From Actinomycetota bacterium (GTDB taxonomy: Bacteria > Actinomycetota > Acidimicrobiia > Acidimicrobiales > SZUA-35): a DNA stretch of 56,390 bases. The notes beneath the pieces are model-generated. The model was not told the origin of the DNA and searched no databases. It was given only the letters and a program-made list of their open reading frames with translations. Shown here in pieces: positions 9,527 to 37,124 of the stretch. Both the position numbers and the translations under genes were made by a program. Every line of letters begins with the position of its first letter. Within the stretch, counting starts at the first letter, position 1. The DNA is taken from positions 1 to 56,390 of the forward strand of contig JBCCGJ010000002.1 of the NCBI GenBank assembly GCA_039029335.1, read 5' to 3'.

Positions 9527-9578
9527 GCGGATCGGTTGACACCCGGCCGGTCCGGCCGCTCCCGGCCGATCGCCGGAC

Positions 9579-10415
9579 TCAGGGCTGGAGCTTGGTGCTG
9601 ATGCGCCGCTCGGCGATGGCCAGTCCGACGGCCCCCATGGCGAACAGGTACAGGACCTGGACCACCGAGTCCCAACCGACGGTGCCGAACGTGAGGTCTC
9701 TGGCCAGGTCGACCCCCTGGTACAGCGGCGTGAGCTGCACGACGGTGGCCAGTACGCCGGGATACCGGCTGAGCGGGAAGAAGCTCGCGGAGAACAGGAA
9801 CATCGGGAACGCGACCAGGCTCATGAACTCGAAGTCGAGCCAGCTACGCAGGAACGAGGCTCCGACAAACCCGACACCGCCGAACCCGAAGGCCACAAGC
9901 ATCGCTGCAACCGGCAGAAGGACCGCCCACCAGGACACCACCAGGCCCATCAACCACATCGTGATGGCAAAGGCGGTGCTCTGGATGCCCAGGTAGCCGA
10001 CGATCCACAGCAGCTCGCCGTGGATGATGTCCCGGACACCGATGGGGGAGGCCAGCATCGAGTCGTAGCTGCCCTGCCACTCGAACTTGGAGTAGAAGTC
10101 GATGACCGTGGCGAACAGGGCGGCGTTCATCGCCGAGGCCACCAGCATCGCCGGAGCCACGAACGAGCGGTAGCTGATCGGCAGGCCGTCCGGCCCGCTG
10201 ACCTCCTCGACAAGCGCGCCGACACCAACACCGATGGAGAACAGGAACAGGAACGGTTCGAGCAGCCGCGTCACAAACACCAGCCAGTACTGCTTGCTGA
10301 TGGTGCAGTTACGTTGGATGACCCGCAGGCTTCGATACCGGACAAGCGTTTGCAGCGCTCCCGGTCCGCTGCGGGGTTGGGGGCGGGATGCCGGTGGCCG
10401 GTCGACGGTGGTCAT
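9579..10415 (-). CDS. ABC-2 type transporter permease (second permease)
   Basis: Multi-TM protein of ABC-2 type. The track ORF (to 10559) is trimmed to ATG 10415-10413 (MTTVDRPP...), which forms an ATGA overlap with the upstream permease stop. Confidence 0.8.
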   Translation of the reverse strand: MTTVDRPPASRPQPRSGPGALQTLVRYRSLRVIQRNCTISKQYWLVFVTRLLEPFLFLFSIGVGVGALVEEVSGPDGLPISYRSFVAPAMLVASAMNAALFATVIDFYSKFEWQGSYDSMLASPIGVRDIIHGELLWIVGYLGIQSTAFAITMWLMGLVVSWWAVLLPVAAMLVAFGFGGVGFVGASFLRSWLDFEFMSLVAFPMFLFSASFFPLSRYPGVLATVVQLTPLYQGVDLARDLTFGTVGWDSVVQVLYLFAMGAVGLAIAERRISTKLQP

Positions 10416-13475: not shown

Positions 13476-15238
13476 GTCCCGCCTCCTCCCGCCTGTTCAA
13501 CCGTTTCCTGTTCGGCCGTGTGGGTCATGCTGCTGTGCCGCCCACCGGCCCGGTGGGCCGACAGTGACCAACCGATCCCGACCAGCACGGCCAACGGCAG
13601 TGCGACGCTGACCTCGTTGATCTGCCATTCGAAGGCGGCGTGTACACCGGATGCGGTCAGCCCCGCCAGGACCACCAGCCCGATGTTCTCACCTCGGCTT
13701 GCCGAACGCCAGGCACCGATCCCGCCGCCCAGCAGGAGTACCAGCAGTGGGACGGCGCCGAGCAACCCCCAGGTGGCCAGACCCTCCAGGGCCAGGTTGT
13801 GGGCGTGGCCGCCGGGGAAGCGACGATCGTCGGGTAGGTCGTCGTCGGCGAACGCGCCAAGCTGCATCGGACCGACACCGAGCAACGGCCGATCGACGAA
13901 CGCGTCGACCGCCAGCCGCCAGAGCTCCGGCCGGTTCAGGTTGACCCGGGGGGTGACCAGCGGCTCGGTCGGTCCGGGGTCGATCGGGCTGTCCACCACG
14001 GTCAGCATGCCCGCAGCCGCAGACGAGCTCCCGGCGAACTGCAGGAAATAGGCCTCCTGATCGATCAACAGATCCCACAGCGCTCGATAGCGGCCGTCCG
14101 CCACGGTCTGGGCGATCGGAACGGTCACCGTCTCGGTCACCCCGGGGGGCACGTCGTCCGGAAGCGGCCATCGTTGCTCGTCGGCGATTCGATCGTCCCC
14201 GTCGGGGAGGAGCCGCACCGAGAGTTCGACCCGATCATCACCGGTGGCTTGCCAGGTCCGGTCGCTGTGATTGGTGACGGTGACCGAGACGATCCGCCCG
14301 CCCGGTTCCAGGACCACGTCCGCCGGTGGCACAACCGTCGCCGCGAAGTCGTCCCCGGTCCTGATGAACACGCCGCGTTCCCAGCCGGGTGCCGCGGCCA
14401 TCACCAGGGCCATCACGCCGATCAGAAACGCTCCCTCCCGGACCGTCGGACCGGGTCCCGTATCGGTCCGGAACCACAGAACGGCGGCCCCGACGGCAAC
14501 GGCGATCAGGATCGCCGCAACCCCGGCCCGGCTGTAGGTCAACACGGCGGACACCACGAGCACGACCAGCACGCCACGATCAACCAACCGGTGCCACAGC
14601 GTCCGGCCCGACATGATCAGGACGGACAGCATCGCCGCCGCCGGCCCGAGGGCCATGGCCGCCACGTTGGCATGGCTCCACGGTCTGGTGAGCCGAGGGG
14701 TCAGGTCGATGCGGGTCACCCTGCCGACAAACGGTTCGGTGAACCACGGCTCCCCGCCGTTGATCAGGACCGCAAGCCCGATCGACGCGCCGGCGGCCGC
14801 CCCGCCAACCAGCCACCGGATGACGTGTTCGATGTCGGGTTCAGAACGGAGCAGCAGAACCGTTGCCACAACGGTGGTCACCAGCGCAACGGCGGTGACA
14901 AAACCACCAAGACCGATCAACCGCTGGTCGCTCAGCGCTGTGGAGAGGCCCACCATGACCACCAGGAGACCACCGACCAGGAGGGGTGTCCGTGCCCCAC
15001 CGAGCGGTCCGCCGCGCCGAGCGACGGCGGCCACCACCGCACCACAGATCACCAGCTGCAGGAGCATCAGCGGCCGGAGCGCGATCTGCAGGCGCTGGTC
15101 CGTGGCGGGTGGCGCCACGTTGAACGGCGCCAGGGCCACCAACACCGCCAGCGCCGGAAGGGCGAACCGGGTTTGGCCAGCCTCGGTCCCGGAGCTCGAC
15201 GTCGTGGATCTCCCGTTGCCGATGGTTACTTTTACCAC
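13472..15238 (-). CDS. O-antigen ligase/polymerase-like (Wzy_C-type) membrane protein with an inserted soluble domain
   Basis: Many TM segments, with GGHAHNLALEGLATWG resembling the O-antigen ligase motif. The start is uncertain. GTG 15238 was chosen because the longer track ORF (to 15514) overlaps the divergent sulfotransferase; GTG/TTG at 15145-15139 is also possible. Confidence 0.65.
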   Translation of the reverse strand: MVKVTIGNGRSTTSSSGTEAGQTRFALPALAVLVALAPFNVAPPATDQRLQIALRPLMLLQLVICGAVVAAVARRGGPLGGARTPLLVGGLLVVMVGLSTALSDQRLIGLGGFVTAVALVTTVVATVLLLRSEPDIEHVIRWLVGGAAAGASIGLAVLINGGEPWFTEPFVGRVTRIDLTPRLTRPWSHANVAAMALGPAAAMLSVLIMSGRTLWHRLVDRGVLVVLVVSAVLTYSRAGVAAILIAVAVGAAVLWFRTDTGPGPTVREGAFLIGVMALVMAAAPGWERGVFIRTGDDFAATVVPPADVVLEPGGRIVSVTVTNHSDRTWQATGDDRVELSVRLLPDGDDRIADEQRWPLPDDVPPGVTETVTVPIAQTVADGRYRALWDLLIDQEAYFLQFAGSSSAAAGMLTVVDSPIDPGPTEPLVTPRVNLNRPELWRLAVDAFVDRPLLGVGPMQLGAFADDDLPDDRRFPGGHAHNLALEGLATWGLLGAVPLLVLLLGGGIGAWRSASRGENIGLVVLAGLTASGVHAAFEWQINEVSVALPLAVLVGIGWSLSAHRAGGRHSSMTHTAEQETVEQAGGGGT

Positions 15239-15854
15239 GGTGACCGCCGGACAGGTAGACGATCGGAAGGTCTTCGGACTCGGCCTGGCCAGAACCGGGA
15301 CAACTGCGATGCACCGGGCGATGGACATCCTCGACATCCCGTCCGCCCCTTCCTCCGCCCGGCTGATCGACGGGTTGGACGACCGGTTCCTCGCCGCCCA
15401 CCAGGCGTTCTTCGACAACCCGATTCCGTTCCTCCGGACCGAGCTGGCCGAGCGGTTCCCCGACGCCCGGTTTGTCGTGACCTGGCGGCCGGTCGAGTCC
15501 TGGCTGGTCTCCATGGAGTGGCTGTTCGGCCCCGGACTGGACCGGCTGGACCGGGAAACGCGGGTGCTGGGAGACCGGGTCCACCGGGCGGTGTACGGCT
15601 TCGACCGGTTCGAACCCGACCGGCTCCGGGAGATCCACCGCCGTCACTACACCGAGCTGCGGGAGTGGTCGGCCGGGCGGGACGAGGCGCTGTGGCTCAA
15701 CCAGGAGGACGGGTTCAGCTGGGGGCCGCTCTGTCGGTTCCTCGAGGTTGCCGAGCCGACCGTTCCGTTCCCGGTGGTGAATCGTTCGACGGATGCGACC
15801 CCTCGCCCCGGTCGCCCGCTCGGCTGGCGATGGCGGCCAGGGCGGCGGCGCTGA
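15222..15854 (+). CDS. sulfotransferase family protein (P-loop PAPS-binding type)
   Basis: This is the C-terminal part of track ORF 14613-15854. From ATG 15222 it reads KVFGLGLARTGTTAMHRAM (5'-PSB-like loop) ... WGPLCRFLEVAEPTVPFPVVN, typical of bacterial/fungal sulfotransferase-4-like proteins. Confidence 0.65.
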   Translation: MVTFTTVTAGQVDDRKVFGLGLARTGTTAMHRAMDILDIPSAPSSARLIDGLDDRFLAAHQAFFDNPIPFLRTELAERFPDARFVVTWRPVESWLVSMEWLFGPGLDRLDRETRVLGDRVHRAVYGFDRFEPDRLREIHRRHYTELREWSAGRDEALWLNQEDGFSWGPLCRFLEVAEPTVPFPVVNRSTDATPRPGRPLGWRWRPGRRR

Positions 15855-17022
15855 GGGCGGCCGTGGCCACCTGGACAACGGCCACCAGCACCAACCGGTC
15901 GGCGGTCGCTCCGATCACCGCACCAACCAGGGCGACGGCCGCGCCGGTAACCGCGACGGCCAGCACCAGCCGTTCCCGGCCGACCGCGATCAGCTCGAAT
16001 GAGTACCGCAGTCGGACCACCGTGGCCACCAGCCCGAGACCGAGGATCCGAATGATCACCACACCGTTTGGCGGGTCGTCGAAGAGTTGCTCGCTGAGAA
16101 CCGGGGCCAGCGCGGCGATCGCCGCCGCGGCGACAACGGCGTAGCCCAGCATCGCGGCGTACAACCGCCGGTAGTCCGCGGAGCGGTGCACACCGTCGAA
16201 CATGGCGGGGAACAGCGCGGCGAAGGCCGACGCCGGAACCAGCCGGGCGGTCTCGGTCAGCCGCATCCCGGCCGCAAGGCCGCCGGCATCCCCGTCGCCC
16301 ATCGCCTCGTAGACGATCAGCGCGCCCTGGACCATCACCGCCGTTGCCACCGTTGCCGCGGCGAACACCCAGGACTCGGCCACCAGCCGACCGAGCCGCC
16401 AGGACCCGCCGGCATCGACTGCCGCGTCGGCTCCGGAGGCGACTGCTCGCCTACCCGATCGCACAATCGTGGTTGCCGGGATCGCCAGGGCGACGGCGCC
16501 CACCGCGTGACCCGCCGCAACGGCGGCAACCGCCATCCCGACCCGGTCGTCGACCAGCGCGACGGCCAGGACAAGCGACACCACCGAGGTCAGCAGTGCG
16601 GCCAACGGGATCGTGGCCATTCGTTGAGCGCCCCGCAACACGGCCCCGGCCACCGTTGTCACCCCCAACGGGACAAGCGTCGCAGCGGGGATGAGGATCA
16701 CCGACGGCCAGCCGAGCAGGGTCACCAGCGCCCCGGCAGCGGCCAGGACAACACCGGCACCCAGGAGCTGCAGGACCAGCGCCCGCCGGATCGTGGCCGC
16801 CGCGTCCGGCCGCCGGTCCGCCACCGCCCGAACCACCACCACGTCGACCCCGAACGTGATGGCCAGGTTGGCCACCGCCCCGCCGGCCACGAGCGCGGCG
16901 AACGTACCGAACCCCGCGCTGCCGAGGCGGGCGGCGACCAGCGCCGCCAGCAAAAGGTTGCCGAGCGCACCGATGACCCTGGCCGCCAGCAGCGCCCCGG
17001 CGTTCCGGCCGACACCGGTCAA
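15715..17022 (-). CDS. polysaccharide biosynthesis protein / Wzx-like flippase (MOP superfamily)
   Basis: About 12-14 TM segments with N-terminus GRNAGALLAARVIGALGNLLL. Start assigned to TTG 17022 because the first ~38 codons of the track ORF cover the conserved intergenic element; the start remains uncertain. Confidence 0.7.
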   Translation of the reverse strand: MTGVGRNAGALLAARVIGALGNLLLAALVAARLGSAGFGTFAALVAGGAVANLAITFGVDVVVVRAVADRRPDAAATIRRALVLQLLGAGVVLAAAGALVTLLGWPSVILIPAATLVPLGVTTVAGAVLRGAQRMATIPLAALLTSVVSLVLAVALVDDRVGMAVAAVAAGHAVGAVALAIPATTIVRSGRRAVASGADAAVDAGGSWRLGRLVAESWVFAAATVATAVMVQGALIVYEAMGDGDAGGLAAGMRLTETARLVPASAFAALFPAMFDGVHRSADYRRLYAAMLGYAVVAAAAIAALAPVLSEQLFDDPPNGVVIIRILGLGLVATVVRLRYSFELIAVGRERLVLAVAVTGAAVALVGAVIGATADRLVLVAVVQVATAALSAAALAAIASRAGDRGEGSHPSNDSPPGTERSARQPRGTDRAAPS

Positions 17023-17068
17023 CGGTTCTCCGGGCCACGGGGAGGTGCGCCGGCGCCTGCCCGCCAGT

Positions 17069-17134
17069 GGCTTCGACGCGGAGCGTCTCGCGTGCTGTTT
17101 CGGCCTGGAGGCCGAAACCGGTGAGACGTGGCAC
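17069..17134 (+). promoter_or_regulatory. conserved 66-nt hairpin element, copy 2
   Basis: ggcttcgacgcggagcgtctcgcgtgctgtttcggcctggaggccgaaaccggtgagacgtggcac. It lies in the divergent intergenic region, 90 nt upstream of ATG 17225. Confidence 0.6.
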
Positions 17135-17224
17135 AAGCTGCTGAGTCACGTCCCCAAGAACTTAGACCCCTCAGCGCCGACCGGATCAACGCTCTATCAT
17201 GACAGCCCCGACCACCGGAGGCGC

Positions 17225-18412
17225 ATGACCGAACCGTCACAGGCCGAGCCGAATCCACCGGCGATCGTGGTCATGGCCTACGACCGACCGTCGTCGCTCG
17301 ACCGGCTGCTCCGCTCGCTGGACAGAGCGGAGATCGAGGGAACGGTCGATCTGGTGATCTCCGTCGACGGGGGTGGTGCGAACAATCGGGCGGTGACGGC
17401 ACTGGCCGAGGGGTTCCGTTGGGATCACGGCATCAAGGAGGTCGCCCACCACGACCACCTCGGTCTTGTTGGCCATTTCCACCGCTGCGGGGACCTGTCC
17501 GAACGGTTCGGGTCGGTCGTGCTGCTGGAGGATGACCTGATCGTCGGTCCGACGTTCCACCGCGGGGCGGCCGCCGCGGTGGCCGCCGTGGCGGCGGATG
17601 ACCGGGTGGCGGGGGTGTGCCTGGCGGCTCCCTGGTTCGACGGGTACCGCCACCTGCCGTTCTCCCCGATCCTGGACGGCTCCGCCGGGTGGTACCTGCA
17701 GGTGCCGTGGTTCCACGGGATGGCCTGGACTGCCGACCAGTGGGGTCATTACCGGCGGTGGCTGTCGGCCGAGACTCCGGACCGGCGATCGGCGATCGTC
17801 ATCCACGCCGCCTTCGACCGGCTCGACCAGGACGAGTGGTTCCCGGACGCCGTTCGGTATCTAGTGGCGAACGAACGCTTCTACCTGCTGCCCCGTGAGG
17901 CCAGGGCCACCAACACCGGAGCCGCCGGGCAGCACTTCGATCACGACAGCGACTTCTTCCAGGTGCCGGTGCAGCTGGCCGCGGGCCCGGCCGAACACAT
18001 CGTTCCGCTCGATGATGCGTTGGCCGTCTACGACGATCACCTTGAACCGCTGCCCGACGTGGCGAAACGGCTCTGCCCCGACCTTGCCGATCTGGATCTG
18101 ACCGTCGACCTGCTGGCGGTGCGGGACCCCGCAACGATCACCACCGAGTGGGTGTTGACCACCCGGCCGGTCACCGGCGCGGCGCGGACCTGGGGTCTCC
18201 ACATGCGGCCGCCGATGGCGAACCTGGCGGCCGACACCCCGGGCTCGGGTATCGCCCTGGCGAAACGGGCGGCACTGCGAACCGGCCGCCTGGCCGACGC
18301 GGCCACCGCGGCCAAGCTCGGGGCGTATGCGGCGAACGGGCGGCCACCCGGCATCCGGTCCGCCATTCGTGGCGCCGTTGGGCGTTCGGTCGGAGCGTGG
18401 TTCGATGGCTGA
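17225..18412 (+). CDS. GT-A fold glycosyltransferase, GNT-I (GT13)-like
   Basis: AIVVMAYDRPSSLDRLLRSL ... LVISVDGG ... SVVLLEDDLIVGPTFH follows the GNT-I pattern (acnRP...SqDg...EDDLe.apDF). GGAGG lies 3 nt before ATG 17225. The track ORF start (16691) lies inside the flippase gene. Confidence 0.7.
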   Translation: MTEPSQAEPNPPAIVVMAYDRPSSLDRLLRSLDRAEIEGTVDLVISVDGGGANNRAVTALAEGFRWDHGIKEVAHHDHLGLVGHFHRCGDLSERFGSVVLLEDDLIVGPTFHRGAAAAVAAVAADDRVAGVCLAAPWFDGYRHLPFSPILDGSAGWYLQVPWFHGMAWTADQWGHYRRWLSAETPDRRSAIVIHAAFDRLDQDEWFPDAVRYLVANERFYLLPREARATNTGAAGQHFDHDSDFFQVPVQLAAGPAEHIVPLDDALAVYDDHLEPLPDVAKRLCPDLADLDLTVDLLAVRDPATITTEWVLTTRPVTGAARTWGLHMRPPMANLAADTPGSGIALAKRAALRTGRLADAATAAKLGAYAANGRPPGIRSAIRGAVGRSVGAWFDG

Positions 18413-19154
18413 GCCCGCAGACCGGCCGGTGCTCAGCGCAGCAGCCATGCTGGGCGACCGGGTCCTCCCGCTCCCGGCCCGGGCGGTTGTGGTGTTCGAC
18501 GAGTCCCACGTGCCGAAACGGCGACGGCGCCGGGATCCCGCCCCGTTTCGCCGGATCGCCCTGGCCGGATCGGACGGCGACGTTGCGGTGGTGGCCACGG
18601 TCGGACCCGGCGGACCGACCGCCGCGGTCACCATCGAGTTCCTGGCCCATCTCGGCGTGTCCGTCGTCATTGCGGTCGGCGTCGCCGGTGATCTGCACGG
18701 TGTGGGGAACACCGACCGGCGGGGCGCCGGACCGCTCCCGGTTTCCGCGGCGGTCGCCGAGGACGGGACGTCGGTCCGGTACGGGTCCCACCAGCCGGGA
18801 GCGACCCTGGACGCCGACGCCCGGCTGGTTGCCGCCCTGGTGGAAGCCACCGGCGAGGCGCCGGTGGTCGCCGTCTCCACCGACACCCCGCTGCGTCACG
18901 GCAAGGCCGACATCACTCGCTTCCGACAATCGGCAAGACTGGTGGAGATGGAGACGGCCGCGCTTTTGGCTGCCGGGGATCGCTGCGCCGTCCGAGTCGG
19001 TGCGCTGCTGGTCCCCAGCGACGGCTACCACACCACAGACGACGGCCCCGTCTGGTCCGCCGCCGACCAGAAACTGGTCAAGCCGAGCGTCACGGTGGCG
19101 GTGCACACGGCGATCGCCGTCCTTGCCGCAGAACCACCGGTGGCACCCTCATGA
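18405..19154 (+). CDS. nucleoside phosphorylase / nucleosidase fold protein (PNP_UDP_1-like)
   Basis: VVIAVGVAGDL and LVEMETAALLAAG motifs. ATG 18405 overlaps the upstream stop (ATGGCTGA). Confidence 0.65.
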   Translation: MAEPADRPVLSAAAMLGDRVLPLPARAVVVFDESHVPKRRRRRDPAPFRRIALAGSDGDVAVVATVGPGGPTAAVTIEFLAHLGVSVVIAVGVAGDLHGVGNTDRRGAGPLPVSAAVAEDGTSVRYGSHQPGATLDADARLVAALVEATGEAPVVAVSTDTPLRHGKADITRFRQSARLVEMETAALLAAGDRCAVRVGALLVPSDGYHTTDDGPVWSAADQKLVKPSVTVAVHTAIAVLAAEPPVAPS

Positions 19155-20221
19155 GCGCGCCGTCCGTCGCCATCGTCCACGATTTCCTGACCATCAAGGG
19201 CGGGAGCGAACGGGTGGCGCTTGCCCTGACCAGCGCGTTCCCCGATGCTCCGCTGTACACGTCGCTCTACAAACCGGATGGGACGTTCGCCGAGTTCGCC
19301 GACGTCGACGTCCGCACCGGACCACTGAACCGCGTCCCCCGTTTCCGCAACGATCACCGGCTTGCGCTCCCATTCCTGTCGCCGTCGTTTCGGGCGACCC
19401 GGATCGACGCCGATGTTGTGATCTGCAGCTCCGCCGGGTTCTCCCACCACGTGCGGACCACCGGGGCCAAGGTGGTGTACTGCCACACCCCGGCCCGATG
19501 GTTGTACGACGCCGACCGATACGTCAACGGCTGGAGCGGGCTGGTCGGCGTCGGGGCGGCGGTCATGCGGCCGGCACTCGCCCCGCTCGACCGGGTGGCC
19601 ATGGCCGAGGCGTCTCTGATCATCGCCAACTCCCCGGACATCGCCGCCGAGGTGGAACGGATCTACGACCGGGAACCGATCGTCATCTCGCCGTGCTCGT
19701 CGCTGTCGCTCGACGGGCCGGTCGAACCGATCGCGAACCTCGAACCGGGCTTCATCCTCTGCCCCAGCCGGACGCTCGGGTACAAGCGGCTGGACGTGCT
19801 GGTCGACGCGGCCAGAATGCTGCCGGAGCTGCAGTTCCTCCACATCGGTGACGGCCCGCACCGGTCGTCGCTCGCCGACGCGCCTCGGAACGTCCGCTCC
19901 GTCGGGTCGGTGGACGACGCCCGCCTTCGCTGGGCCTACCGCAACGCCAGGGCGGTCGCCATCACCTGCGCCGAGGACTTTGGCCTTGTGCCGATGGAGG
20001 CTCACGCCCACGGCCTCACCTCGGTTGTCCCCCGGGCCAGGGGCCTGATCGGTCAGCGGGCCCTGGCCGAGAGCGGGATCTTCTACGACTACGGCCGGGC
20101 GGAAGCCCTGGCCAAGGCGCTGGTCGAGACCGAAGCGCCCCGGTCACGGGCCCTGCATCCCGATCGGCTCGGTGTGGACGAATTCATCTCCGCCATTGCG
20201 ACCCATGCGGCGGCACTGTGA
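19151..20221 (+). CDS. glycosyltransferase family 4 (GT-B)
   Basis: N-terminus VAIVHDFLTIKGGSERVALAL and C-terminal EDFGLVPMEAHAHG (E-x7-E-type GT4 motif). ATGA overlap upstream. Confidence 0.85.
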   Translation: MSAPSVAIVHDFLTIKGGSERVALALTSAFPDAPLYTSLYKPDGTFAEFADVDVRTGPLNRVPRFRNDHRLALPFLSPSFRATRIDADVVICSSAGFSHHVRTTGAKVVYCHTPARWLYDADRYVNGWSGLVGVGAAVMRPALAPLDRVAMAEASLIIANSPDIAAEVERIYDREPIVISPCSSLSLDGPVEPIANLEPGFILCPSRTLGYKRLDVLVDAARMLPELQFLHIGDGPHRSSLADAPRNVRSVGSVDDARLRWAYRNARAVAITCAEDFGLVPMEAHAHGLTSVVPRARGLIGQRALAESGIFYDYGRAEALAKALVETEAPRSRALHPDRLGVDEFISAIATHAAAL

Positions 20222-21411
20222 CGGTCCGCTACCTCAACGGCCGAGCCGCGGTGAACGGGCCTGGCGGGTTCGCCCGCTTCCACGACGAGGTCACCGCCCA
20301 CCTCCGGTCCAATGGACCGATCACCGTTCTGGCGCCCCCACGATCCGACCCGTTGTCGTCCCGATGGTGGGAACAGCGGACGCTGGTGGGCCGTAGCGGT
20401 GACGGGGTGTTGCTCAGTACGGCAAACAACGGCCCGGTCGGCCACCCGAACCATGCGGTGGTCATCCATGACATCCTCCCGCTGACCCACCCGGAGACCG
20501 TGTCCCCGGTGTTCGCCGCCCTGCAGCGGGTCCTGCTGCCCCGCCTGTGCCGGAACGCCGCTGCGGTGCTGACCGTCTCCAACCATGTTGCCGGGCAACT
20601 GGAGACCGTGCTGGGGGTCGACCCGGAAAGGATCACCGTTGTCCCGCCCGGTGTCAGCGACGTCTTCCGGCCGGCCGCCGACGGCGGTGCCCGAAACGGC
20701 GATGCCCGAAGCAGCGATGCCCGAAGCAGCGATGCCCGAAACGGCTATGACGGCGATGACCGGGACGGTGGGAACACCGCCGCGTCCTTCGGGCTCGATC
20801 CTGACCGACCCGTCGTGACCGCTCTTGTCAGTTCGATCCCCCGCAAGAATTCCACCGAGGTCCTGGGAACCCTGGCTGCGGTGGCGGCGACCCGGCCGGA
20901 CGTGCAGGTGGTGGTTGCGGGCCACGACGGCCCGGCCCGGGTGTTCGGCCGTCGAGCGGTCAGACCGACCCATCCGGCCGTGCGGGACCTTGGACCGCTG
21001 CCGGACGAGCGGTTGGCCGACCTGTTCCGGCGGGCCGACGTCTTTGTGTCTCTCACGGAAGCCGAGGGGTTCGGTCTTCCACCCTTGGAGGCGCTGGCCG
21101 CCGGCGCGGCGGTGGTCACCACCCCGATGCCGTCGCTGGCGGAGCACCTCCCGGGGCTGACGGCGACGGTCACCGACCGGCGGGCGGCGGCGACCGCGGT
21201 GATCGATCTTCTGGGTGACTCGGCGGCCCGGGCTGCCCAGGTGATGGCGGCGGCCGACGTTGTGGAGGACCTTACGTGGGCCGGGACGGCGGCGGCGGTT
21301 GGACAGGTACTTCGGCGGTTGGAATCCCGGGGTCGATTGGAACCACCGGGTGGACTGGAACCACTGGGTGGACTGGAACCACCGGGTCGATTGGAACGAT
21401 ATGGAAACTGA
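20218..21411 (+). CDS. glycosyltransferase family 4 (GT-B) with internal and C-terminal short tandem repeats
   Basis: EAEGFGLPPLEALAAGAAVV motif. GTGA overlap upstream. Repeats encode GARNG-DARSS-DARSS-DARNG and GRLEPPGGLEPLGGLEPPGRLE. Confidence 0.8.
   Translation: MTVRYLNGRAAVNGPGGFARFHDEVTAHLRSNGPITVLAPPRSDPLSSRWWEQRTLVGRSGDGVLLSTANNGPVGHPNHAVVIHDILPLTHPETVSPVFAALQRVLLPRLCRNAAAVLTVSNHVAGQLETVLGVDPERITVVPPGVSDVFRPAADGGARNGDARSSDARSSDARNGYDGDDRDGGNTAASFGLDPDRPVVTALVSSIPRKNSTEVLGTLAAVAATRPDVQVVVAGHDGPARVFGRRAVRPTHPAVRDLGPLPDERLADLFRRADVFVSLTEAEGFGLPPLEALAAGAAVVTTPMPSLAEHLPGLTATVTDRRAAATAVIDLLGDSAARAAQVMAAADVVEDLTWAGTAAAVGQVLRRLESRGRLEPPGGLEPLGGLEPPGRLERYGN
20686..20745 (+). repeat. 4 x 15-nt in-frame tandem repeat (gatgcccgaagcagc type)
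   Basis: Units at 20686, 20701, 20716 and 20731; the two central units are identical. Confidence 0.85.
21331..21402 (+). repeat. about 4 x 18-nt tandem repeat spanning the GT4 3' end up to the next start codon
   Basis: Units ggtcgattggaaccaccg / ggtggactggaaccactg / ggtggactggaaccaccg / ggtcgattggaac.., in an A-B-B-A order. Confidence 0.85.
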
Positions 21412-22327
21412 GTCCGTGCCGGTTGACGGCACAACGGAGAAGCCGACCCTGGAGGACGCGGTGGTGGCCACCGTGGCCTACTCCGACGTCTTCGACATGC
21501 CGATCGGTATGGGTGATCTGCACCGGTTCCTCATCGGTCGCGCCGCCACACCGGAGGAGCTGACTGCCGCAGCGGATGCGCTGGTGGCCGCCGGACGGCT
21601 GGGCCGGGACGACGGACTGCTGTTCCTACCCGGTCGGGACGAGGTGCTGGCGGTCCACGCCGACCGGGTGGCGCGGGCGGCGACGATGTGGCCGAAGGCC
21701 GTGCGCTGGGGGGTACGGATCGGTCGTCTTCCGAACGTCGTCGCCGTTGCGGTGACCGGAGGGCTTGCGGTGGACTCGGTCGCCCCCCATGACGACGCCG
21801 ACTACTTCATCATCACGAGGCCCGGTCGGCTGTGGCTGACCCGGCTGCTTGTGCTGGTGCTGGTGCGACTGGCCGAGCGGGACGACATAGAACTCTGCCC
21901 CAACTACATCGTCAGCGAGTCGGCGCTGGTCATGGACGAGCGGACCATCTACGTCGCACGAGAGTTGGCCCAGATGGTTCCGGTGACCGGCGTCGACCGT
22001 TGCCGGGAGGTGCGGACCCGCAACCGGTGGATGTTCGATCAGCTCCCGAACGCCACCGTCGACGGGGATCTGAGCCGGGTGGTCGACATCGGCCGATCGG
22101 GGTTCGTCAAGCGGGCGGCCGAAGCCGTCCTGGCGTTGCCGATGTTCGGTCCGCTGGAGCGGTGGGAGATGACCCGCAAGACAAAAAAGCTGGCCACCGT
22201 CCGGTCCCGGCGCCCGGAGGTCGGCGCACCGGATGAGTCGTCGTTCTCGCCGGACGTGTGCAAGGGCCACATGGTCGGCAACGCCGGCGGCATCGAGGTC
22301 GCATGGCGGGAACGGATCGACCGGTGA
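21401..22327 (+). CDS. hypothetical protein with Pol-beta-type nucleotidyltransferase-like motif
   Basis: From ATG 21401 (METESVP...). VAVAVTGGLAVDSVAPHDDADYFII fits hG[GS]-x(9-13)-D-x-D of minimal NTases. 11-nt overlap with the upstream stop. Confidence 0.5.
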   Translation: METESVPVDGTTEKPTLEDAVVATVAYSDVFDMPIGMGDLHRFLIGRAATPEELTAAADALVAAGRLGRDDGLLFLPGRDEVLAVHADRVARAATMWPKAVRWGVRIGRLPNVVAVAVTGGLAVDSVAPHDDADYFIITRPGRLWLTRLLVLVLVRLAERDDIELCPNYIVSESALVMDERTIYVARELAQMVPVTGVDRCREVRTRNRWMFDQLPNATVDGDLSRVVDIGRSGFVKRAAEAVLALPMFGPLERWEMTRKTKKLATVRSRRPEVGAPDESSFSPDVCKGHMVGNAGGIEVAWRERIDR

Positions 22328-23253
22328 CCTCGCCCTTCCGGCCCGGCGTGTTCGACCCGCTGGCGGCGGGTTACGACGACGTGGCCCAGTCGACCCTCGG
22401 GGTCCACTACCGGAACCGGGTGGCGGCGGTCATCGACCGGCACGTGGGGCCCGGGGCCCGTGTCCTGGACATCGGCTGCGGAACCGGCATCGACGCCGCT
22501 CGGCTGAGCGCGGCCGGTCACCGGGTGGTTGCCATCGACGCCTCCGGGGAGATGGTGGTCAGGACCAGGTCCCGAGGTGTGGCCGACGTGTACCAGCGTG
22601 ACCTCGACACGCTGCCCGCAGCGGACCCTCGCCCGCACGGTTCGGAGGGTCCGGAGGGTTTGGACGGTGCGGGAGAGGGGACCGATGCGGTTGTCGACCA
22701 GGTCGGGGATGCGGCGCTGGCCGGTCCGTTCGATCTGGTGCTCGCCAACTTCGGGGTGGTGAACTGCAGCCGGGACCTGCCCCGATTCGGTCGGTGGCTT
22801 GTGGCCAACCTGGACCCGGACGGGGTAGCGGTCCTGGTCACGATGGCACCGGTCTGTCCGCCGGAACTGCTCCAGGGCGTGGTGACCGGCAACGGTGCGC
22901 TGCTCCGTCGACGCCGCCGGTCCCGGCAGGCGGCTGACGGGACGGCGACGGCATTCGGTGATCCGTACGCCGGGATGCCGGTTCGGTACCACTCCGCAGG
23001 CCGGCTGGTCGCCGCCCTCGGTGGCGGGCTCGAGCTGGTCGATGCCAGAGCCATCGGGGTTGCGCTGCCGACGTTCGAGCAGCGCCGCGTTGTCCAGAAT
23101 CGACCTCGCCTGCTCCGAGCGCTTGGGTTGGTCGACCGGCTGCTGGGCAGCCCGGCGGTCGGACTGGCGATGGGAGACCACCACATCGCCGTCGTCGGCA
23201 GAAGGCGGGTTGTTCCGACGGCTGCCACCGCCGGTGACGGGAGCGGCTCATGA
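22303..23253 (+). CDS. class I SAM-dependent methyltransferase
   Basis: Motif [16 protein letters not shown]. The start is ATG 22303, or GTG 22324 (GTGA overlap with the upstream stop). Confidence 0.8.
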
Positions 23254-24233
23254 CCGCCGACCGGGCGGCCCCCACCTCGGCCGCCGTCGCCACCGGCGCC
23301 GGGTTCCGGGTCACCGCTCCCGGTACCGACCGCCCGTTGCAGCTGCGGGACGGGGCGTTCCATGACACCGGCGCCCACCACCCCTGTGTGGACGGGGTCT
23401 GGGACTTGGTCGACGCCACCCGGCGGGAGGCGGTCGACACGTTCGCCCGGGACTACGCCGCGGTCAGAGCCGCCGAGGCCAGAACGCCGCCGTCGCCGGA
23501 AGCCGTTCGGGCGCTGCCGTACGCCGACCTGACCGGCGAGCTCGAGGGGATGTGGGCCGAGCGGGCCGCATCGTTCGACCGGTTCCTGGCCGCGCTGGAC
23601 CCGACCGACGGCACGGTCGTCGACCTCGGCGCCGGTTGCGGATGGTTGGCGGCCCGGCTGGCCGGGGCCGGCTGGACCGCAGCCGCGGTGGACGTCACCG
23701 TCGACGGGGGCGACGGTCTCGGCACCGCCCGTTGGCACGACCGGGACCTGTTCCTGGTCCGGGCGGAGATGGACCGACTACCCCTGGCCACCGGTTCGGT
23801 CGATCTTGCGGTGTTCAACGCCTCGCTCCACTACGCGCCGGATGTGTCGTCGGCCCTGGACGAGGCACAGCGGGTGGTCCGGCCCGGAGGGCTGATCGCC
23901 GTCCTCGATTCGCCGGTGTTCACCGACCCGGCCGCCGGTGCGGCGATGGTGGCGGAGTTCGCCGCGGCGACCGTGGCCGCTCACGGGGTGGCTCCAGCAG
24001 CCCATTTCGGCCCCGGCTACGTCGCCGAGGCCGACCTGCAACGGTTCGTCCGGACCCACCGACCGGCCGCGGTCACCCGGGTCGACGATCGGCGGGGCCC
24101 CGTCGGCGCCCTCCGATCGCTGGTCGGTGCTCGACGGGCCGGGCGGGAGATCGCCAAGCGGCCGCTGCTACTGTTTGAGACCCGGGCGAACCACCGACAC
24201 GGGAAGGACCACCAGTGGGAGGACGGCCGATGA
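23250..24233 (+). CDS. class I SAM-dependent methyltransferase (second)
   Basis: Motif I VVDLGAGCGWLAARL and post-I/II VDLAVFNASLHY...RVVRPGGLIAV. ATGA overlap upstream. Confidence 0.75.
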   Translation: MTADRAAPTSAAVATGAGFRVTAPGTDRPLQLRDGAFHDTGAHHPCVDGVWDLVDATRREAVDTFARDYAAVRAAEARTPPSPEAVRALPYADLTGELEGMWAERAASFDRFLAALDPTDGTVVDLGAGCGWLAARLAGAGWTAAAVDVTVDGGDGLGTARWHDRDLFLVRAEMDRLPLATGSVDLAVFNASLHYAPDVSSALDEAQRVVRPGGLIAVLDSPVFTDPAAGAAMVAEFAAATVAAHGVAPAAHFGPGYVAEADLQRFVRTHRPAAVTRVDDRRGPVGALRSLVGARRAGREIAKRPLLLFETRANHRHGKDHQWEDGR

Positions 24234-25792
24234 AGGTGCTGCTCGGTCACTCCTACTTCCAGCACTTCGATCCGAAGCTGGACGAGGCGAACCGACCGTA
24301 TCCGCCCCTCGGTACCTTGGTGGCAGCCGCGCTCCTGCAGGAGCACGGTCACGAGGTTGTGGTCTTCGACGCCATGCTGGCCCGCTCGACGGACGGCTGG
24401 CGAGAGCTGCTGGAGCGCGAGACTCCCGACGCCGCCGTCCTGTTCGAGGACAACTTCAACTACCTGTCGAAGATGTGCCTGTCCCGGATGCGGGAGGCGG
24501 CCCTGGAGATGCTCGGTGATGCGGCGGCCCGGTCGGTGTTCGCCGTTGCCGCCGGGTCAGACGCGTCCGACAACGCGGCGATCTACCTGGAGGCCGGGGC
24601 CGCGGCGGTCATCGCCGGCGAGGGGGACGAGGCGCTGGTCGACCTGCTGGCCGCCCGGGCCGACGGAACGGACCCGGCTGGTCTTGCCGGGGTGTCGGTC
24701 CCCGGTCCGAACGGTGCGGTGGTCGCCGGACCGGACCGGCCCAACCTGAAGCAGCTGGACGAGATCCCGTTCGCCGCCCGTGACCTTGTCGACGTGGACG
24801 CCTACCGGTCGATCTGGCTGGACCACCACGGTCGGTTCTCACTGAACGCGGTGACCACCCGTGGCTGCCCGTACCACTGCAACTGGTGTTCAAAACCGAT
24901 CTGGGGTCAGCGTTACAACGCCCGCTCGGCGGACAACGTGGTGGCCGAACTGGTCCACCTCAGGGACACGTTCGGCCCGGACCACGTCTGGTTCGCCGAC
25001 GACATCTTCGGGTTGAAGCCGGGATGGATCCAGCGCTTCGCCGAGCTGGTGGATGCCGAGGATGTCCGGCTCCCGTTCAAGTGTCTCAGCAGACCGGATC
25101 TGCTCGTCCGTCGAGATACCGCGGAGGCCTTGGGTGCCGCCGGATGTGAAGAGGTCTGGATCGGCGCGGAGTCCGGCAGCCAAAAGATTCTGGACGCCAT
25201 GGAGAAGGGCACAACGGTCGAGCAGATCGTCGAAGCCGCGGACCGGGTGCACGCCTCGGGGTACCGGATCGCCTTTTTCATCCAGTTCGGGTATCCGGGC
25301 GAAACGGAGTCCGACATCGACAAGACGCTGGAGCTGATCCGGCGGGCAAAACCGGACGACATCGGCATTTCGGTGGCCTACCCACTCCCCGGCACCACGT
25401 TCTACGACCGGGTCGAGGCGGAGCTCGGCCAGGTCCGGCACTGGGTCGACTCGAGCGATCTGGCGATGCTGTTCGACGGTCCGTTCCCCACCGAGTTCTA
25501 CCGGGCCCTCCACGAGCGGGTCCATGTGGAGTATCGGCTGCACAAGGCCCGGTGGGCCGCAGCCGACGGACGGTATCCGGGACCGGGCCAGGTGCTCCGT
25601 CTTGTTCGGGACGCGGTCACGCTCCCGATGCACAAACGGCGGGTGGCCAAACTGGCAACCCCGAGCGACCGGGCGCTACCGGAACTGTCGGTGGCGCTCG
25701 ATCGAGCCGCCGCCGCGTCCCCGACCGAGCAGCCGGTGACGATCGGCAAGGCACCGGCCCGGGCCGCAGAGCGCGGCAGCGACGCCGGCTGA
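24230..25792 (+). CDS. cobalamin-binding-domain radical SAM enzyme (class B type)
   Basis: N-terminus MKVLLGHSYF...PPLGTLVAAALLQEHGHEVVVFDA (B12-binding-domain-like). TTRGCPYHCNWCSKP is the CxxxCxxC cluster motif. ATGA overlap upstream. Confidence 0.9.
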   Translation: MKVLLGHSYFQHFDPKLDEANRPYPPLGTLVAAALLQEHGHEVVVFDAMLARSTDGWRELLERETPDAAVLFEDNFNYLSKMCLSRMREAALEMLGDAAARSVFAVAAGSDASDNAAIYLEAGAAAVIAGEGDEALVDLLAARADGTDPAGLAGVSVPGPNGAVVAGPDRPNLKQLDEIPFAARDLVDVDAYRSIWLDHHGRFSLNAVTTRGCPYHCNWCSKPIWGQRYNARSADNVVAELVHLRDTFGPDHVWFADDIFGLKPGWIQRFAELVDAEDVRLPFKCLSRPDLLVRRDTAEALGAAGCEEVWIGAESGSQKILDAMEKGTTVEQIVEAADRVHASGYRIAFFIQFGYPGETESDIDKTLELIRRAKPDDIGISVAYPLPGTTFYDRVEAELGQVRHWVDSSDLAMLFDGPFPTEFYRALHERVHVEYRLHKARWAAADGRYPGPGQVLRLVRDAVTLPMHKRRVAKLATPSDRALPELSVALDRAAAASPTEQPVTIGKAPARAAERGSDAG

Positions 25793-25847
25793 CCCGGCGT
25801 GAACCCGACGGGCTGCCTGTACGTCTGCGCCTCCGCCGGGCCGCGAG

Positions 25848-25899
25848 TTTCCCGGGGCCGGTTGGCAGGTTCAGCGTCGTGCGGGTGCGCCCCGGGAAA
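25848..25899. terminator. 10-bp inverted repeat (tttcccgggg ... ccccgggaaa) between convergent genes
   Basis: Arms at 25848-25857 and 25890-25899. The loop is long (32 nt), so this is weak as an intrinsic terminator. Confidence 0.3.
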
Positions 25900-25925
25900 T
25901 GTGTCGCAGCCCGAAGGGTTGCCGC

Positions 25926-26570
25926 TTAGCGGATCGGGTTCTTGTAGGTGTCCAGGTAGGTGATGCGCTCGACCGGGTCCCGGGTGGCGGCCTTGAAGTC
26001 GGTGCCTTTTGTGTAGGCCACCGGCAGCAGCCCGGCCTGGCTCATGTGCTCCGGGATACCCAGCAGCTCGGCCGCTTCGGCTTCGAGCCCGAGGTGAAGC
26101 GTCGTGTAACAGCTACCGAGACCGCGGCTTCGCAGTGCCAGCTGAAAGCTCCACATCGCAGGGATGATCGAGCCGAACAGGCCCGCCGCGGAGTTGGTGC
26201 TGCCGTCTTCCAACCGGCCGATGATCATCGGGATGACCATGACCGGCACCTTCTCCAGGTTCTGGGCCAGGAAGTTCGCCGAGTCCATGACCCGCCCGGT
26301 CTGTGAGCCCGCCTCGGTTGTCTTGGCCGCCTCCGCCAGGTAGTCGCCTCCTGCCCGACGGTAGATGTCGGCCAGCCCGGCCTTCTTCTCCTCGTCGCGA
26401 ACCACCATCCACCGCCAACCCTGCCGGTTCGACCCGGTCGGGGCCTGGACCGCCAGCTGCAGGCACTCCAGAAGGACGTCGTCCGGAACCTCCCGGTCCA
26501 GGTCTAGCCGTTTTCTGACGGCGCGGGTGGTGGAAAGAAGGGCATCGGTCTGCTCAAGGTCGAACTGCAT
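25926..26570 (-). CDS. nitroreductase family protein
   Basis: Trimmed to ATG 26570 (MQFDLEQTDALLSTTRAVRKRLDLDREVPDDVLLECLQLAVQAPTGSNRQGWRW), a typical nitroreductase N-terminus. Confidence 0.8.
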   Translation of the reverse strand: MQFDLEQTDALLSTTRAVRKRLDLDREVPDDVLLECLQLAVQAPTGSNRQGWRWMVVRDEEKKAGLADIYRRAGGDYLAEAAKTTEAGSQTGRVMDSANFLAQNLEKVPVMVIPMIIGRLEDGSTNSAAGLFGSIIPAMWSFQLALRSRGLGSCYTTLHLGLEAEAAELLGIPEHMSQAGLLPVAYTKGTDFKAATRDPVERITYLDTYKNPIR

Positions 26571-37090: not shown

Positions 37091-37124
37091 GCTGCGAGTC
37101 GGCCAGACCAATCCAGCAGGCAGC

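Follow-up and report, generated by a model that had tools for sequence, protein, structure and literature searches.

Operon structure

The DNA analysed here (the window) comprises 56,390 nucleotides, positions 1 to 56,390 of contig JBCCGJ010000002.1 from an Actinomycetota bacterium of the Acidimicrobiales lineage SZUA-35 (GenBank assembly GCA_039029335.1). Our subject is a run of eight plus-strand genes at window positions 17225–25792, termed g1–g8, and in particular two of their products: g5, with a predicted nucleotidyltransferase fold, and g8, a putative class B (cobalamin-binding-domain) radical S-adenosylmethionine (SAM) enzyme. Checking the open reading frames (ORFs) of the window confirmed all eight genes and their ends. 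A preliminary description of this DNA had reported eight plus-strand genes overlapping at all seven junctions; its coordinates and letters are exact, and the motifs that it quoted are present (LLEDDL in g1, VEMETAAL in g2, TGG-x10-DAD in g5, VLDIGCGTG in g6, VVDLGAGCG in g7 and CPYHCNWC in g8). The genes, their junctions and the flanking non-coding features are as follows.

17225–18412, plus strand: g1, 395 residues, predicted GT-A glycosyltransferase, distantly GNT-I/POMGNT1-like
18405–19154, plus strand: g2, 249 residues, predicted nucleoside phosphorylase/nucleosidase fold of the NP-I family, putatively accessory
19151–20221, plus strand: g3, 356 residues, predicted GT4 glycosyltransferase
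20218–21411, plus strand: g4, 397 residues, predicted GT4 glycosyltransferase with two in-frame tandem-repeat inserts
21401–22327, plus strand: g5, 308 residues, predicted winged helix and minimal Pol-beta-type nucleotidyltransferase fold
22324–23253, plus strand: g6, 309 residues, predicted class I SAM methyltransferase
23250–24233, plus strand: g7, 327 residues, predicted class I SAM methyltransferase with an N-terminal extension of ~110 residues
24230–25792, plus strand: g8, 520 residues, predicted class B (cobalamin-binding-domain) radical SAM enzyme
18405–18412, plus strand: g1/g2 junction, stop/start overlap ATGGCTGA
19151–19154, plus strand: g2/g3 junction, ATGA
20218–20221, plus strand: g3/g4 junction, GTGA
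21401–21411, plus strand: g4/g5 junction, ATG...TGA, 11 nt
22324–22327, plus strand: g5/g6 junction, GTGA
23250–23253, plus strand: g6/g7 junction, ATGA
24230–24233, plus strand: g7/g8 junction, ATGA
17137–17224, no strand: divergent intergenic region between wzx and g1, 88 nt, presumed promoter region and the only 5′ non-coding gap
25797–25925, no strand: nested inverted repeats downstream of g8, in the gap between convergent genes, possible terminator

The GC content at third codon positions lies between 0.79 and 0.88 in each called frame from g1 to g8, and we therefore take all eight to be coding. Alternative upstream starts exist for g1 (16691), g2 (18327), g5 (21260), g6 (22258 or 22303) and g8 (24215); the starts listed above, which are those of the preliminary description, are favoured because they agree with the lengths of homologues (377–408 residues for g1; 234, 302 and 254 residues for g2, g5 and g6, respectively, in related locus L003). 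One protein from a Logan assembly (P0241, on a 13.9-kb contig) has 455 residues and matches g1 with 100% identity along the entire query. Its extra length implies a start ~180 nt upstream (17045–17224), overlapping the divergent wzx; homologue lengths favour 17225.

Single 4-nt overlaps are common in high-GC genomes, where an A, G or T preceding a TGA stop supplies a candidate start by chance. Here all seven consecutive junctions are gap-free, each with a change of frame, and the same stop/start overlap pattern recurs in eight related loci, which argues that the eight genes form, at the sequence level, one translationally coupled operon. A consensus scan of 16900–26100 detected neither a sigma-70-like promoter nor an intrinsic terminator (shuffled sequences average 2.9 terminator-like sites), and a promoter scan of 17137–17224 found no sigma-70 consensus. 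After g8, the repeat arms at 25797–25816 and 25906–25925 are 80% complementary and those at 25848–25858 and 25889–25899 100% complementary; their fold energy is not significantly better than that of shuffled sequence (z = −1.6), and we therefore do not claim a terminator. Neither a cobalamin riboswitch nor any other Rfam family was detected in the window at gathering thresholds. Each operon gene is present in one copy in the window. The GC content of the operon (0.70–0.72, versus ~0.68 for the whole window) gives no foreign-DNA signal, and a horizontal-transfer island was rejected on that ground.

The g5–g8 pair across genomes

A profile search for g5 relatives retrieved 6508 cluster representatives (50% identity clusters) at E <= 1e-3, 2201 of them at E <= 1e-30. 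Relatives of g5 are annotated throughout as hypothetical. At least 533 places in species-representative genomes encode one; the best 80 of these all lie in metagenome-assembled genomes, with no cultured carrier among them. Six of the 80 belong to Acidimicrobiales/Actinomycetota (56–68% identity), one to Elusimicrobia and nearly all the others to Chloroflexota, whose carriers span Anaerolineae, Ardenticatenaceae, Caldilineaceae, Roseiflexaceae, Thermomicrobiales and Promineifilaceae. The g8 family is likewise large (7981 of 8000 scored candidates at E <= 1e-20), with 53–60% identity between g8 and Chloroflexota proteins and a mean column identity of 60% in 44 sequences.

The gene order recurs in eight Acidimicrobiia-type metagenomic loci, bearing out the conservation that the preliminary description had put forward as a check: g1–g8 are all kept, with Wzx/Wzy alongside, in L001, L003, L008, L009, L010 and L011, and the order is the same without g4 in L007 and L012. 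Chloroflexota loci take two forms, either Wzy-GT-g5-g8-g6-g7-Wzx-g2-g1 (L030, L038, L060, L070 and L074) or g5-g8 followed by one to three more cobalamin (B12) radical SAM paralogues and methyltransferases.

We counted adjacency in 83 loci, duplicates excluded, that encode a g5 relative. In 74 of them the next gene on the same strand is of g8 type (>400 bits), in eight it is a lower-scoring B12 radical SAM gene, and in the remaining one the contig ends. In eight loci g5 and g8 share a single reading frame (P0065 is such a g5::g8 fusion). Further fusions join g5 to GT4 glycosyltransferases in both orders (GT4::g5 and g5::GT4; P0329, P0361 and P0401), to a cellulose-synthase-like GT2 (GT2::g5; P0333) and to Wzy_C (Wzy_C::g5; P0337), and the next gene after each of these is a g8-type radical SAM gene. 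In L087–L091 the called genes overlap by 4 nt. Because adjacency is constant and fusions recur across genomes, the evolutionary unit, as read from these sequences, is g5 with g8, usually accompanied by g6/g7 and a Wzy-like gene, and not all eight genes; g5 appears to be the obligate partner of the g8-type radical SAM enzyme and the element linking it to glycan assembly proteins. The preliminary description had overlooked this core, its sharing with Chloroflexota and the fusions of g5 to radical SAM enzymes, glycosyltransferases and Wzy.

Gene families were counted, using iterated profiles built here, in the 42 loci whose sequence extends at least 7 kb upstream and 8 kb downstream of g5:

g8-type radical SAM gene: 42 of 42 loci
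g6-type methyltransferase: 35 of 42
Wzy-like: 28 of 42, often directly upstream of g5
g7-type methyltransferase: 25 of 42
GT4: 24 of 42
Wzx: 21 of 42
g2: 18 of 42
g1: 15 of 42
Any glycan gene: 31 of 42

The gene string of L089 reads GT2, Wzy, GT4, GT4, Bac_transf, Wzx::Wzy, GT4::g5 and radical SAM gene. In this locus (4993–8004) and in L090 (242–3247), a single chain of ~1000 residues containing Polysacc_synt and Wzy_C is encoded directly upstream of GT4::g5. A Wzy_C gene lies directly upstream in L040.

In several Chloroflexota cassettes (L091, L031, L035 and L027) g5, sometimes fused to GT4, precedes B12 radical SAM paralogues numbering three or four, together with one methyltransferase of class I, one of MTS/PrmA type and a SPASM radical SAM protein, so that radical SAM genes are clustered here with unusual density. 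In L091 (8001–18118), g5::GT4 is succeeded by four B12 radical SAM genes, a pair of methyltransferase genes and one gene for a SPASM radical SAM protein. A cluster for peptides made on the ribosome and modified after translation (RiPPs) was considered for these multi-radical-SAM cassettes and rejected as their main explanation, given the fusion of g5 to GT4 in L091 and no sighting of genes for a precursor peptide or RiPP recognition element (RRE). L027 and L031 have metabolic genes of no evident relation at their flanks. In L035 (Chloroflexia), the ORF directly upstream of g5 (8743–9717) has sub-threshold matches to the phage major capsid protein GP7 and to SrpI-like encapsulin.

Predicted fold and conserved residues of g5

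The g5 protein of the window has no Pfam match at E <= 0.01 and no NCBIfam match, and single-sequence searches of the PDB with g5 or g1 gave chance-level matches only. An AlphaFold2 (AF2) model built from 50 homologues (predicted local distance difference test score, pLDDT, 92.7; predicted template-modelling score, pTM, 0.90) is confident; it begins with a winged helix at the N terminus, continues through a long helix and a small alpha/beta core, and closes with a C-terminal region. Foldseek relates the core to MNT/MntA, AadA/ANT and GlnE, all weakly (best E 8e-3, TM 0.2–0.5), and the N terminus, again weakly, to IclR-type winged helices; a g5 profile run against the PDB has MNT as its sole match (E 0.73). 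Among the 50 homologues, 19 match NTP_transf_2 weakly (best E 5.8e-4) and five match Polbeta.

The hG[GS]...[DE]h[DE]h signature is present in g5 as T119-G120-G121 and, after a spacer of ten residues, D132-A-D134. All 50 g5 sequences compared, down to 38% identity, keep G120, D132 and D134, with G, S or A at position 121; also invariant are R143, W145, R148, C166-P-N168, E188, Q191, E256, R259, E279 and C287-K-G-H290. The strand at 165–172, where a third catalytic carboxylate was looked for, instead has L-C-P-N-Y with C166, P167 and N168 invariant, and the preceding E164 is retained in only 25 of the 50 sequences. Since the fold and profile matches are weak and C-P-N replaces the carboxylate, a Pol-beta-type nucleotidyltransferase fold is a reasonable but not proven reading of the g5 model. 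The invariant G120, D132 and D134, with an MNT/ANT-like predicted fold, indicate that g5 is likely to be active or nucleotide-binding.

Two other roles for g5 were considered. The winged helix might have pointed to a transcription factor, an idea rejected in view of the fusions to enzymes and membrane proteins. For a LicD/fukutin-type phosphotransferase, no LicD was found among the weak Pfam matches of the 50 homologues, leaving a functional analogy only.

Class assignment of g8

g8 matches Radical_SAM in Pfam at 72.8 bits (cut-off 29.5) and passes the B12-binding model marginally (33.9 bits versus a cut-off of 32.1), with PF02310 found in most homologues. Its CxxxCxxC motif, C213-P-Y-H-C217-N-W-C220, has cysteines that are invariant in 44 homologues. 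We placed g8 by its scores against NCBIfam models, instead of by a sequence-similarity network against GenK, Fom3 and HpnP; it reaches no NCBIfam equivalog cut-off, its score against every curated family lying far below. The scores (bits against cut-off) are:

HpnJ (TIGR03471): 125.2 against 577.6, best NCBIfam match, residues 143–398 only
Ladderane-type family: 114 against 360
MJ_0865 (MgmA): 102.7 against 360
PhpK: 98.7 against 600
BchE: 88.7 against 481
Sden_1168 P-methylase: 80.7 against 575
HpnR: 80 against 650
BzaD: 76.7 against 450
AprD4: 75.5 against 500

The RiPP family ApyD is also among the NCBIfam matches. An AF2 model of g8 (pLDDT 85.5) matches the solved class B enzymes MgmA/QCMT, TsrM, AprD4, OxsB, TokK and CysS, the match spanning the full length for MgmA, TsrM, OxsB, TokK and CysS. 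The best solved-structure match is MgmA/QCMT (4e-22, 21% identity), a protein glutamine C-methylase (PDB 9CCB). AprD4 ranks second among PDB matches by sequence (3.7e-16) and scores 1.3e-16 by fold. Sequence and model together thus support assignment of g8 to the class B radical SAM enzymes, which confirms its class and not its reaction. AprD4 carries the same B12-like domain without using cobalamin, so that g8 is a putative user of cobalamin.

A CobQ-type cobyric acid synthase (GATase_3 and CbiA) is encoded at 49445–51250 on the minus strand, ~24 kb from g8. It shows only that the organism appears to have at least part of corrinoid biosynthesis.

Proposed function and alternatives

We interpret the locus as an operon for a Wzx/Wzy-type envelope polysaccharide (or a lipid- or protein-linked glycan) in which g5 and g8 carry out radical tailoring of a sugar, probably C-methylation, and we hold this reading with even confidence. 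The repeat unit would be built by g1 (GT-A) with g3 and g4 (GT4). g5 would probably make, hold or attach a nucleotide handle on the sugar substrate and would tie g8 physically to the glycosyltransferase/Wzy machinery. The substrate of g8 may be a nucleotide-sugar that g5 makes or keeps bound, or else a residue within the lipid-linked repeat, nucleotidylated or presented by g5; g8 would then use radical chemistry on a sugar carbon that is not activated, the likeliest reaction being methylcobalamin-dependent C-methylation. Transfer of O- or N-methyl groups would fall to g6 and g7, and g2 may trim the nucleoside handle or clear nucleoside by-products, before Wzx flips the completed unit and the Wzy-like protein polymerizes or ligates it. 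A more ambitious version, which we advance only tentatively, is that g5 and g8 constitute a previously unknown two-component glycan-modifying enzyme, in which g5, docked on or fused to glycosyltransferases and Wzy, would place a nucleotide handle or leaving group on a sugar of the growing envelope glycan, or would hold the nucleotide-sugar donor, and the cobalamin radical SAM enzyme would follow with C-alkylation or with rearrangement of the sugar skeleton.

Methylation is favoured for g8 because methylases predominate among characterized class B enzymes (PMC9204698), because SAM methyltransferases and extra B12 radical SAM paralogues often adjoin it, and because HpnJ, its best NCBIfam match, co-clusters with Fom3 and MoeK5 in a published sequence network (PMC9204698). 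Of these two, Fom3 acts on a cytidylylated substrate (cytidylyl-2-hydroxyethylphosphonate) and MoeK5 methylates in moenomycin A biosynthesis (PMC9204698). A methylated glycan, which the preliminary description had suggested, would still be the most economical product. What the sequences show is the structure of the operon, the domains of its products, the linkage of g5 with g8 and the tie of g5 to glycan enzymes; the substrate, the nucleotide handle, the methylation and the role of g2 are what we infer.

Several observations weigh against this account. The strand of g5 that canonically bears the third carboxylate holds an invariant C-P-N, and the fold scores of g5 are weak (Foldseek E 8e-3, Pfam E >= 5.8e-4 and no Pfam match for the window protein itself). 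g8 falls short of every curated equivalog; HpnJ, the family that it matches best, is a non-methylase, and the dehydratase AprD4 is among its best structural matches. Neither the g5 nor the g8 family has a characterized member. Eleven of the 42 loci have no recognizable glycan gene within ~8–10 kb, and the profiles behind those counts, being iterated, may have drifted, above all those for Wzy, Wzx and GT4 (Pfam bore out two of the Wzy calls). In L089 the pair occurs without methyltransferase genes, so g6 and g7 are not obligatory. Finally, the window ORFs scanned yielded neither a priming phosphoglycosyl transferase nor a gene for sugar-nucleotide synthesis or chain-length regulation; the priming transferase may be encoded elsewhere in the genome, and the related loci L003 and L089 do carry a Bac_transf priming enzyme.

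Some of these points lend themselves to a non-methylating g8 that would still act on a sugar, by ring contraction or carbocycle formation akin to HpnJ or OxsB, or by 1,2-diol dehydration/deoxygenation akin to AprD4; here g5 might nucleotidylate a hydroxyl and so create a leaving group, for ANT-type nucleotidyltransferases, which g5 resembles, adenylylate sugar hydroxyls. HpnJ, at 125 bits, is the closest curated family, OxsB also matches the g8 model, and AprD4, matched both by sequence and by fold, was crystallized with its aminoglycoside substrate paromamine; HpnJ, BchE and OxsB are all classed as non-methylases (PMC9204698), and the L089 pair dispenses with methyltransferases. These similarities nevertheless fall far below cut-offs and are no better than those to the methylases MgmA/QCMT (4e-22), TsrM, TokK and CysS, and class B enzymes are mostly methylases (PMC9204698); the SAM methyltransferases and additional B12 radical SAM paralogues so often found nearby fit multiple methylation. 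We regard non-methylating chemistry as a serious alternative, if a somewhat unlikely one. Substrates other than sugars are improbable: the pair could act on a protein or peptide in the manner of QCMT/MgmA, on a lipid carrier or on a membrane lipid, its glycan neighbours reflecting a shared envelope target. The best solved-structure match of g8 is indeed a protein glutamine C-methylase, its NCBIfam matches take in lipid (ladderane-type and HpnR) and RiPP (ApyD) families, and the 11 loci lacking nearby glycan genes, like the unrelated metabolic flanks of L027 and L031, suit such a role. Against it, g5 shares one polypeptide with GT4, GT2 or Wzy_C in the fusions; cassettes without nearby Wzx/Wzy still have g5::GT4 (L091) or an upstream Wzy_C (L040); the operon showed no genes for a precursor peptide, an RRE or lipid synthesis; and the QCMT similarity, at 21% identity, goes no further than the fold common to class B enzymes.

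The radical SAM enzyme and the nucleosidase-like g2 had together led the preliminary description to envisage a nucleoside or adenosyl intermediate. On such a reading a 5′-deoxyadenosyl (or nucleoside) unit would be attached in a radical SAM step and the base then removed by g2, as for HpnH/HpnG and MqnE/MqnB. The idea is not supported, and we consider it very improbable. g2 is an NP-I member with an M-E motif and a conserved Asp, its replaced phosphate-binding Arg/Thr suggests a hydrolase, its best NCBIfam match is AMP nucleosidase (35.5 bits, cut-off 264) and it is adjacent to g1 in both phyla; g8, for its part, best matches HpnJ of the hopanoid side-chain pathway. Yet g2 is present in only 18 of the 42 loci, whereas g5 and g8 are in all 42, and so it is not central to the core chemistry; HpnG, MqnB and MTAN are not among its NCBIfam matches at E <= 0.01; g8 scores far below every curated cut-off; and the operon encodes no adenosylating enzyme resembling HpnH or MqnE, which are not class B enzymes. 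A further alternative retains the glycan setting and removes the nucleotide handle, making g5 a catalytically silent adaptor or regulator that scaffolds g8 on membrane glycan machinery. Fusions to four partner types would suit a docking domain, as would the C-P-N of the third carboxylate strand and the failure of g5 to match Pfam nucleotidyltransferase models. The invariant G120, DxD, R143, W145, R148, E188 and C287-K-G-H290 are in contrast typical of an active or ligand site, and a transcription-factor role is hard to square with enzyme fusions; we think a silent g5 distinctly improbable.

Comparison with characterized systems

Set beside Wzx/Wzy loci for O-antigen, capsule or exopolysaccharide, the present locus similarly has a MOP flippase and Wzy_C beside GT-A, GT4 and acyltransferase-3 genes, and L089 has Bac_transf in the same string. 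It differs in lacking, among the window ORFs scanned, the priming, chain-length and sugar-nucleotide genes noted above, and in having a class B radical SAM enzyme with a nucleotidyltransferase-fold partner, which is not described for such loci in the literature searched.

The nearest logical precedent for the putative g5–g8 module is, by analogy, the cytidylyltransferase domain of Fom1 with Fom3, in which a nucleotidyltransferase gives a nucleotide-tagged substrate to a cobalamin radical SAM C-methylase. The substrate of Fom3 is a phosphonate and not a glycan, the Fom1 domain has a MobA/GT-A-like and not a Pol-beta fold, and we know of no gene fusions or glycan-assembly partners for Fom1/Fom3; g8 scores 98.7 bits against the PhpK model, whose cut-off is 600. 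For g8 itself, the nearest chemical precedents, again by analogy, would be GenK, GenD1, MoeK5 and AprD4. GenK, GenD1, Fms7 and MoeK5 methylate carbons on sugar units, in the case of MoeK5 on a lipid-linked oligosaccharide. As class B radical SAM enzymes like g8, GenK, GenD1/GntE, Fms7 and MoeK5 act as methylases of unactivated carbons on the routes to gentamicin, fortimicin and moenomycin (PMC9204698, PMC12931638). They are likened to g8 by description, belong to antibiotic pathways and have no nucleotidyltransferase-fold partner. AprD4, which works with the reductase AprD3, shares with g8 a B12-like N-terminal domain and radical SAM core and has an aminoglycoside, paromamine, as its substrate; AprD3 is absent here and g8 scores 75.5 bits against the AprD4 cut-off of 500.

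The hopanoid enzymes HpnH, HpnG and HpnJ similarly place a nucleosidase of the purine nucleoside phosphorylase (PNP) fold and a B12-domain radical SAM enzyme in one pathway, HpnJ (the top NCBIfam match of g8) being proposed to act on a lipid-bound amino sugar. Here both an HpnH homologue and hopanoid genes are lacking, no HpnG-type model is among the NCBIfam matches of g2, and g2 is dispensable in most related loci. Finally, MNT/MntA and the aminoglycoside nucleotidyltransferases AadA, ANT(4′) and ANT(9), the best fold matches of g5, have the hG[GS] and DxD of g5 in a Pol-beta-type core, the fold predicted for g5. To this g5 adds an N-terminal winged helix and a C-terminal C-K-G-H, without the usual third carboxylate; it comes without a HEPN partner, and its coupling to a radical SAM enzyme is constant. 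By curated thresholds the operon belongs to none of these families. The preliminary description had recognized no characterized pathway with this gene set, and none emerged from NCBIfam equivalogs, reviews of B12 radical SAM enzymes or the open-access and bioRxiv literature.

Nor did we find a description of a g5–radical SAM cassette in open-access papers and bioRxiv. Cobalamin radical SAM enzymes in reviews have antibiotic, cofactor, pigment, hopanoid, phosphonate and peptide substrates, none belonging to envelope polysaccharide assembly (PMC9204698, PMC12931638). The operon would thus be one instance of a widespread, uncharacterized glycan-tailoring cassette of g5 and a B12 radical SAM enzyme: its setting, a polysaccharide locus of the Wzx/Wzy kind, is familiar, and the putative two-protein radical tailoring module is undescribed. 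Its carriers are abundant, mostly uncultured Chloroflexota and Acidimicrobiia, whose envelopes would, if our preferred reading is true, contain unusual sugars, C-methylated or rearranged and heavily methylated. The pair would then offer radical SAM enzymology a new substrate class and partner-protein logic, and g5 with g8 would serve as a gene marker for finding such glycans. Were the two-component version correct, C-branched or carbocyclic envelope sugars would be expected in Acidimicrobiia and Chloroflexota, and multiply alkylated ones from cassettes whose B12 radical SAM paralogues number three or four. The natural fusions of g5 point to proteins worth co-expressing, and make the module directly testable.

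Other genes of the operon

The preliminary description had read a domain order of GNT-I-like GT-A, nucleoside phosphorylase fold, two GT4, a Pol-beta nucleotidyltransferase-like protein, two methyltransferases and a B12-domain radical SAM enzyme. Six of the products exceed Pfam cut-offs in profile hidden Markov model searches, so that PNP_UDP_1, GT4 (twice), methyltransferase (twice) and B12-binding with Radical_SAM stand; g1 and g5 do not reach GNT-I and NTP_transf_2, and their assignments appear to hold only at the level of family or fold, more weakly than had been stated. g1 has no Pfam match at E <= 0.01 and no NCBIfam match, and against GNT-I at a relaxed E of 0.1 it scores 13.4 bits, below the cut-off of 25.4. 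Among its homologues, 22 of 38 match GNT-I weakly (best E 1.3e-6) and others match MGAT2 or GT2. Positions 4–136 of the g1 family profile align with POMGNT1 (2.7e-5) and GnT-I (1e-3), placing EDDL onto LEEDL and in keeping with a Rossmann-like N-terminal half, and L101-E102-D103-D104-L105 is invariant among homologues. The family profile, the weak homologue matches and the invariant LEDDL together suggest a GT-A enzyme, distantly of GNT-I type.

g2 matches PNP_UDP_1 at 47.7 bits (cut-off 25.1), with Thermus PNP (7.5e-7) and then uridine phosphorylases as its best PDB matches. M182 and E183, the M-E ribose motif, and D206 are kept in at least 90% of 22 homologues. The phosphate-site pattern R-x-G-[ST] is missing: AVGVAG in g2 aligns to RVGTAG of Thermus PNP, whose R and T we take, from E. 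coli PNP, to be phosphate ligands, and because these are replaced by A and V, g2 may be a hydrolase rather than a phosphorylase. Its four NCBIfam matches at E <= 0.01, all far below cut-off, include AMP nucleosidase (35.5 bits against 264, and 25.4 against 307) and uridine phosphorylase; the HpnG, MqnB and MTAN models are absent from them. Sequence comparison makes g2 an accessory member of the cassette with an NP-I fold, one that remains adjacent to g1 in both phyla.

Both GT4 enzymes exceed Pfam cut-offs, g3 with Glyco_trans_1_4 (43.1 bits), Glycos_transf_1 (38.2) and Glyco_transf_4 (32.2), and g4 with Glyco_trans_1_4 (58.6), Glycos_transf_1 (56.7) and a third GT4 model (43.2). g4 contains two in-frame tandem repeats, one at 20681–20749 (15 nt x 4.6) encoding DARSS-like pentapeptides in an inter-domain insert, the other at 21319–21397 (18 nt x 4.4) encoding GRLEPP/GGLEPL hexapeptides at the C terminus; at 397 residues it is longer than its homologues in L003 (340) and L001 (346).

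The methyltransferases are matched by Methyltransf_23 (43.1 bits), Methyltransf_25 (40.7) and Methyltransf_11 (34.8) for g6 and by Methyltransf_11 (51.6 bits) for g7, with motif I reading VLDIGCGTG and VVDLGAGCG, respectively; weak PDB matches of g7 include a D-glucose O-methyltransferase. g6 is ~50 residues longer than its homologues (309 versus 254–259 in L003 and L001), and matches to it split around a Gly/Asp/Pro-rich insert following motif I.

Surrounding genes

The genes divergent from the operon encode envelope-glycan functions, and the Wzx/Wzy-like neighbours named in the preliminary description are real by Pfam score:

15715–17136, minus strand: Wzx-type (MOP family) flippase, divergent from g1, Polysacc_synt 35.9 bits (cut-off 28.2)
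13472–15514, minus strand: Wzy/O-antigen-ligase-family membrane protein, 680 residues, Wzy_C 40.9 bits (cut-off 31.7)
12381–13475, minus strand: acyltransferase-3 family membrane protein, Acyl_transf_3 90.8 bits

Wzx adjoins the g1 homologue in L007, L008, L010 and L011. The start of the acyltransferase-3 gene overlaps the Wzy stop by 4 nt; its product is a probable glycan O-acylation enzyme, whose membership of the system would be positional only. Past it lie an ABC ATPase ORF (read from the translation) and two ABC-2 permeases, and downstream of g8 there is a convergent nitroreductase gene followed by LemA and an M48 peptidase. These flanking ABC and nitroreductase/LemA/M48 genes are not conserved with the operon in other loci.

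A second glycan locus occupies 34642–43514 and comprises a weakly DUF4915-like ORF, GT4 genes at 35588–37090 and 36931–38349, a GT2 gene at 38346–39422, an APH-like ORF on the minus strand, and an ABC-2 permease with a Wzt-like ATPase carrying Wzt_C (40778–43514). By gene content it represents an ABC-transporter-dependent polysaccharide pathway beside the Wzx/Wzy one. Elsewhere in the window, a 967-residue ORF at 650–3553 (minus strand) has a coding-type third-position GC of 0.86 and no Pfam match at E <= 1e-3. The minus strand at 43564–48816 encodes a full 2-oxoacid dehydrogenase set (E3, E2, E1 beta and E1 alpha with a 2-oxoisovalerate-type N terminus), over which the plus-strand ORFs are antisense shadows, and a divergent Lrp/AsnC regulator lies beside it at 48910–49416 (plus strand).

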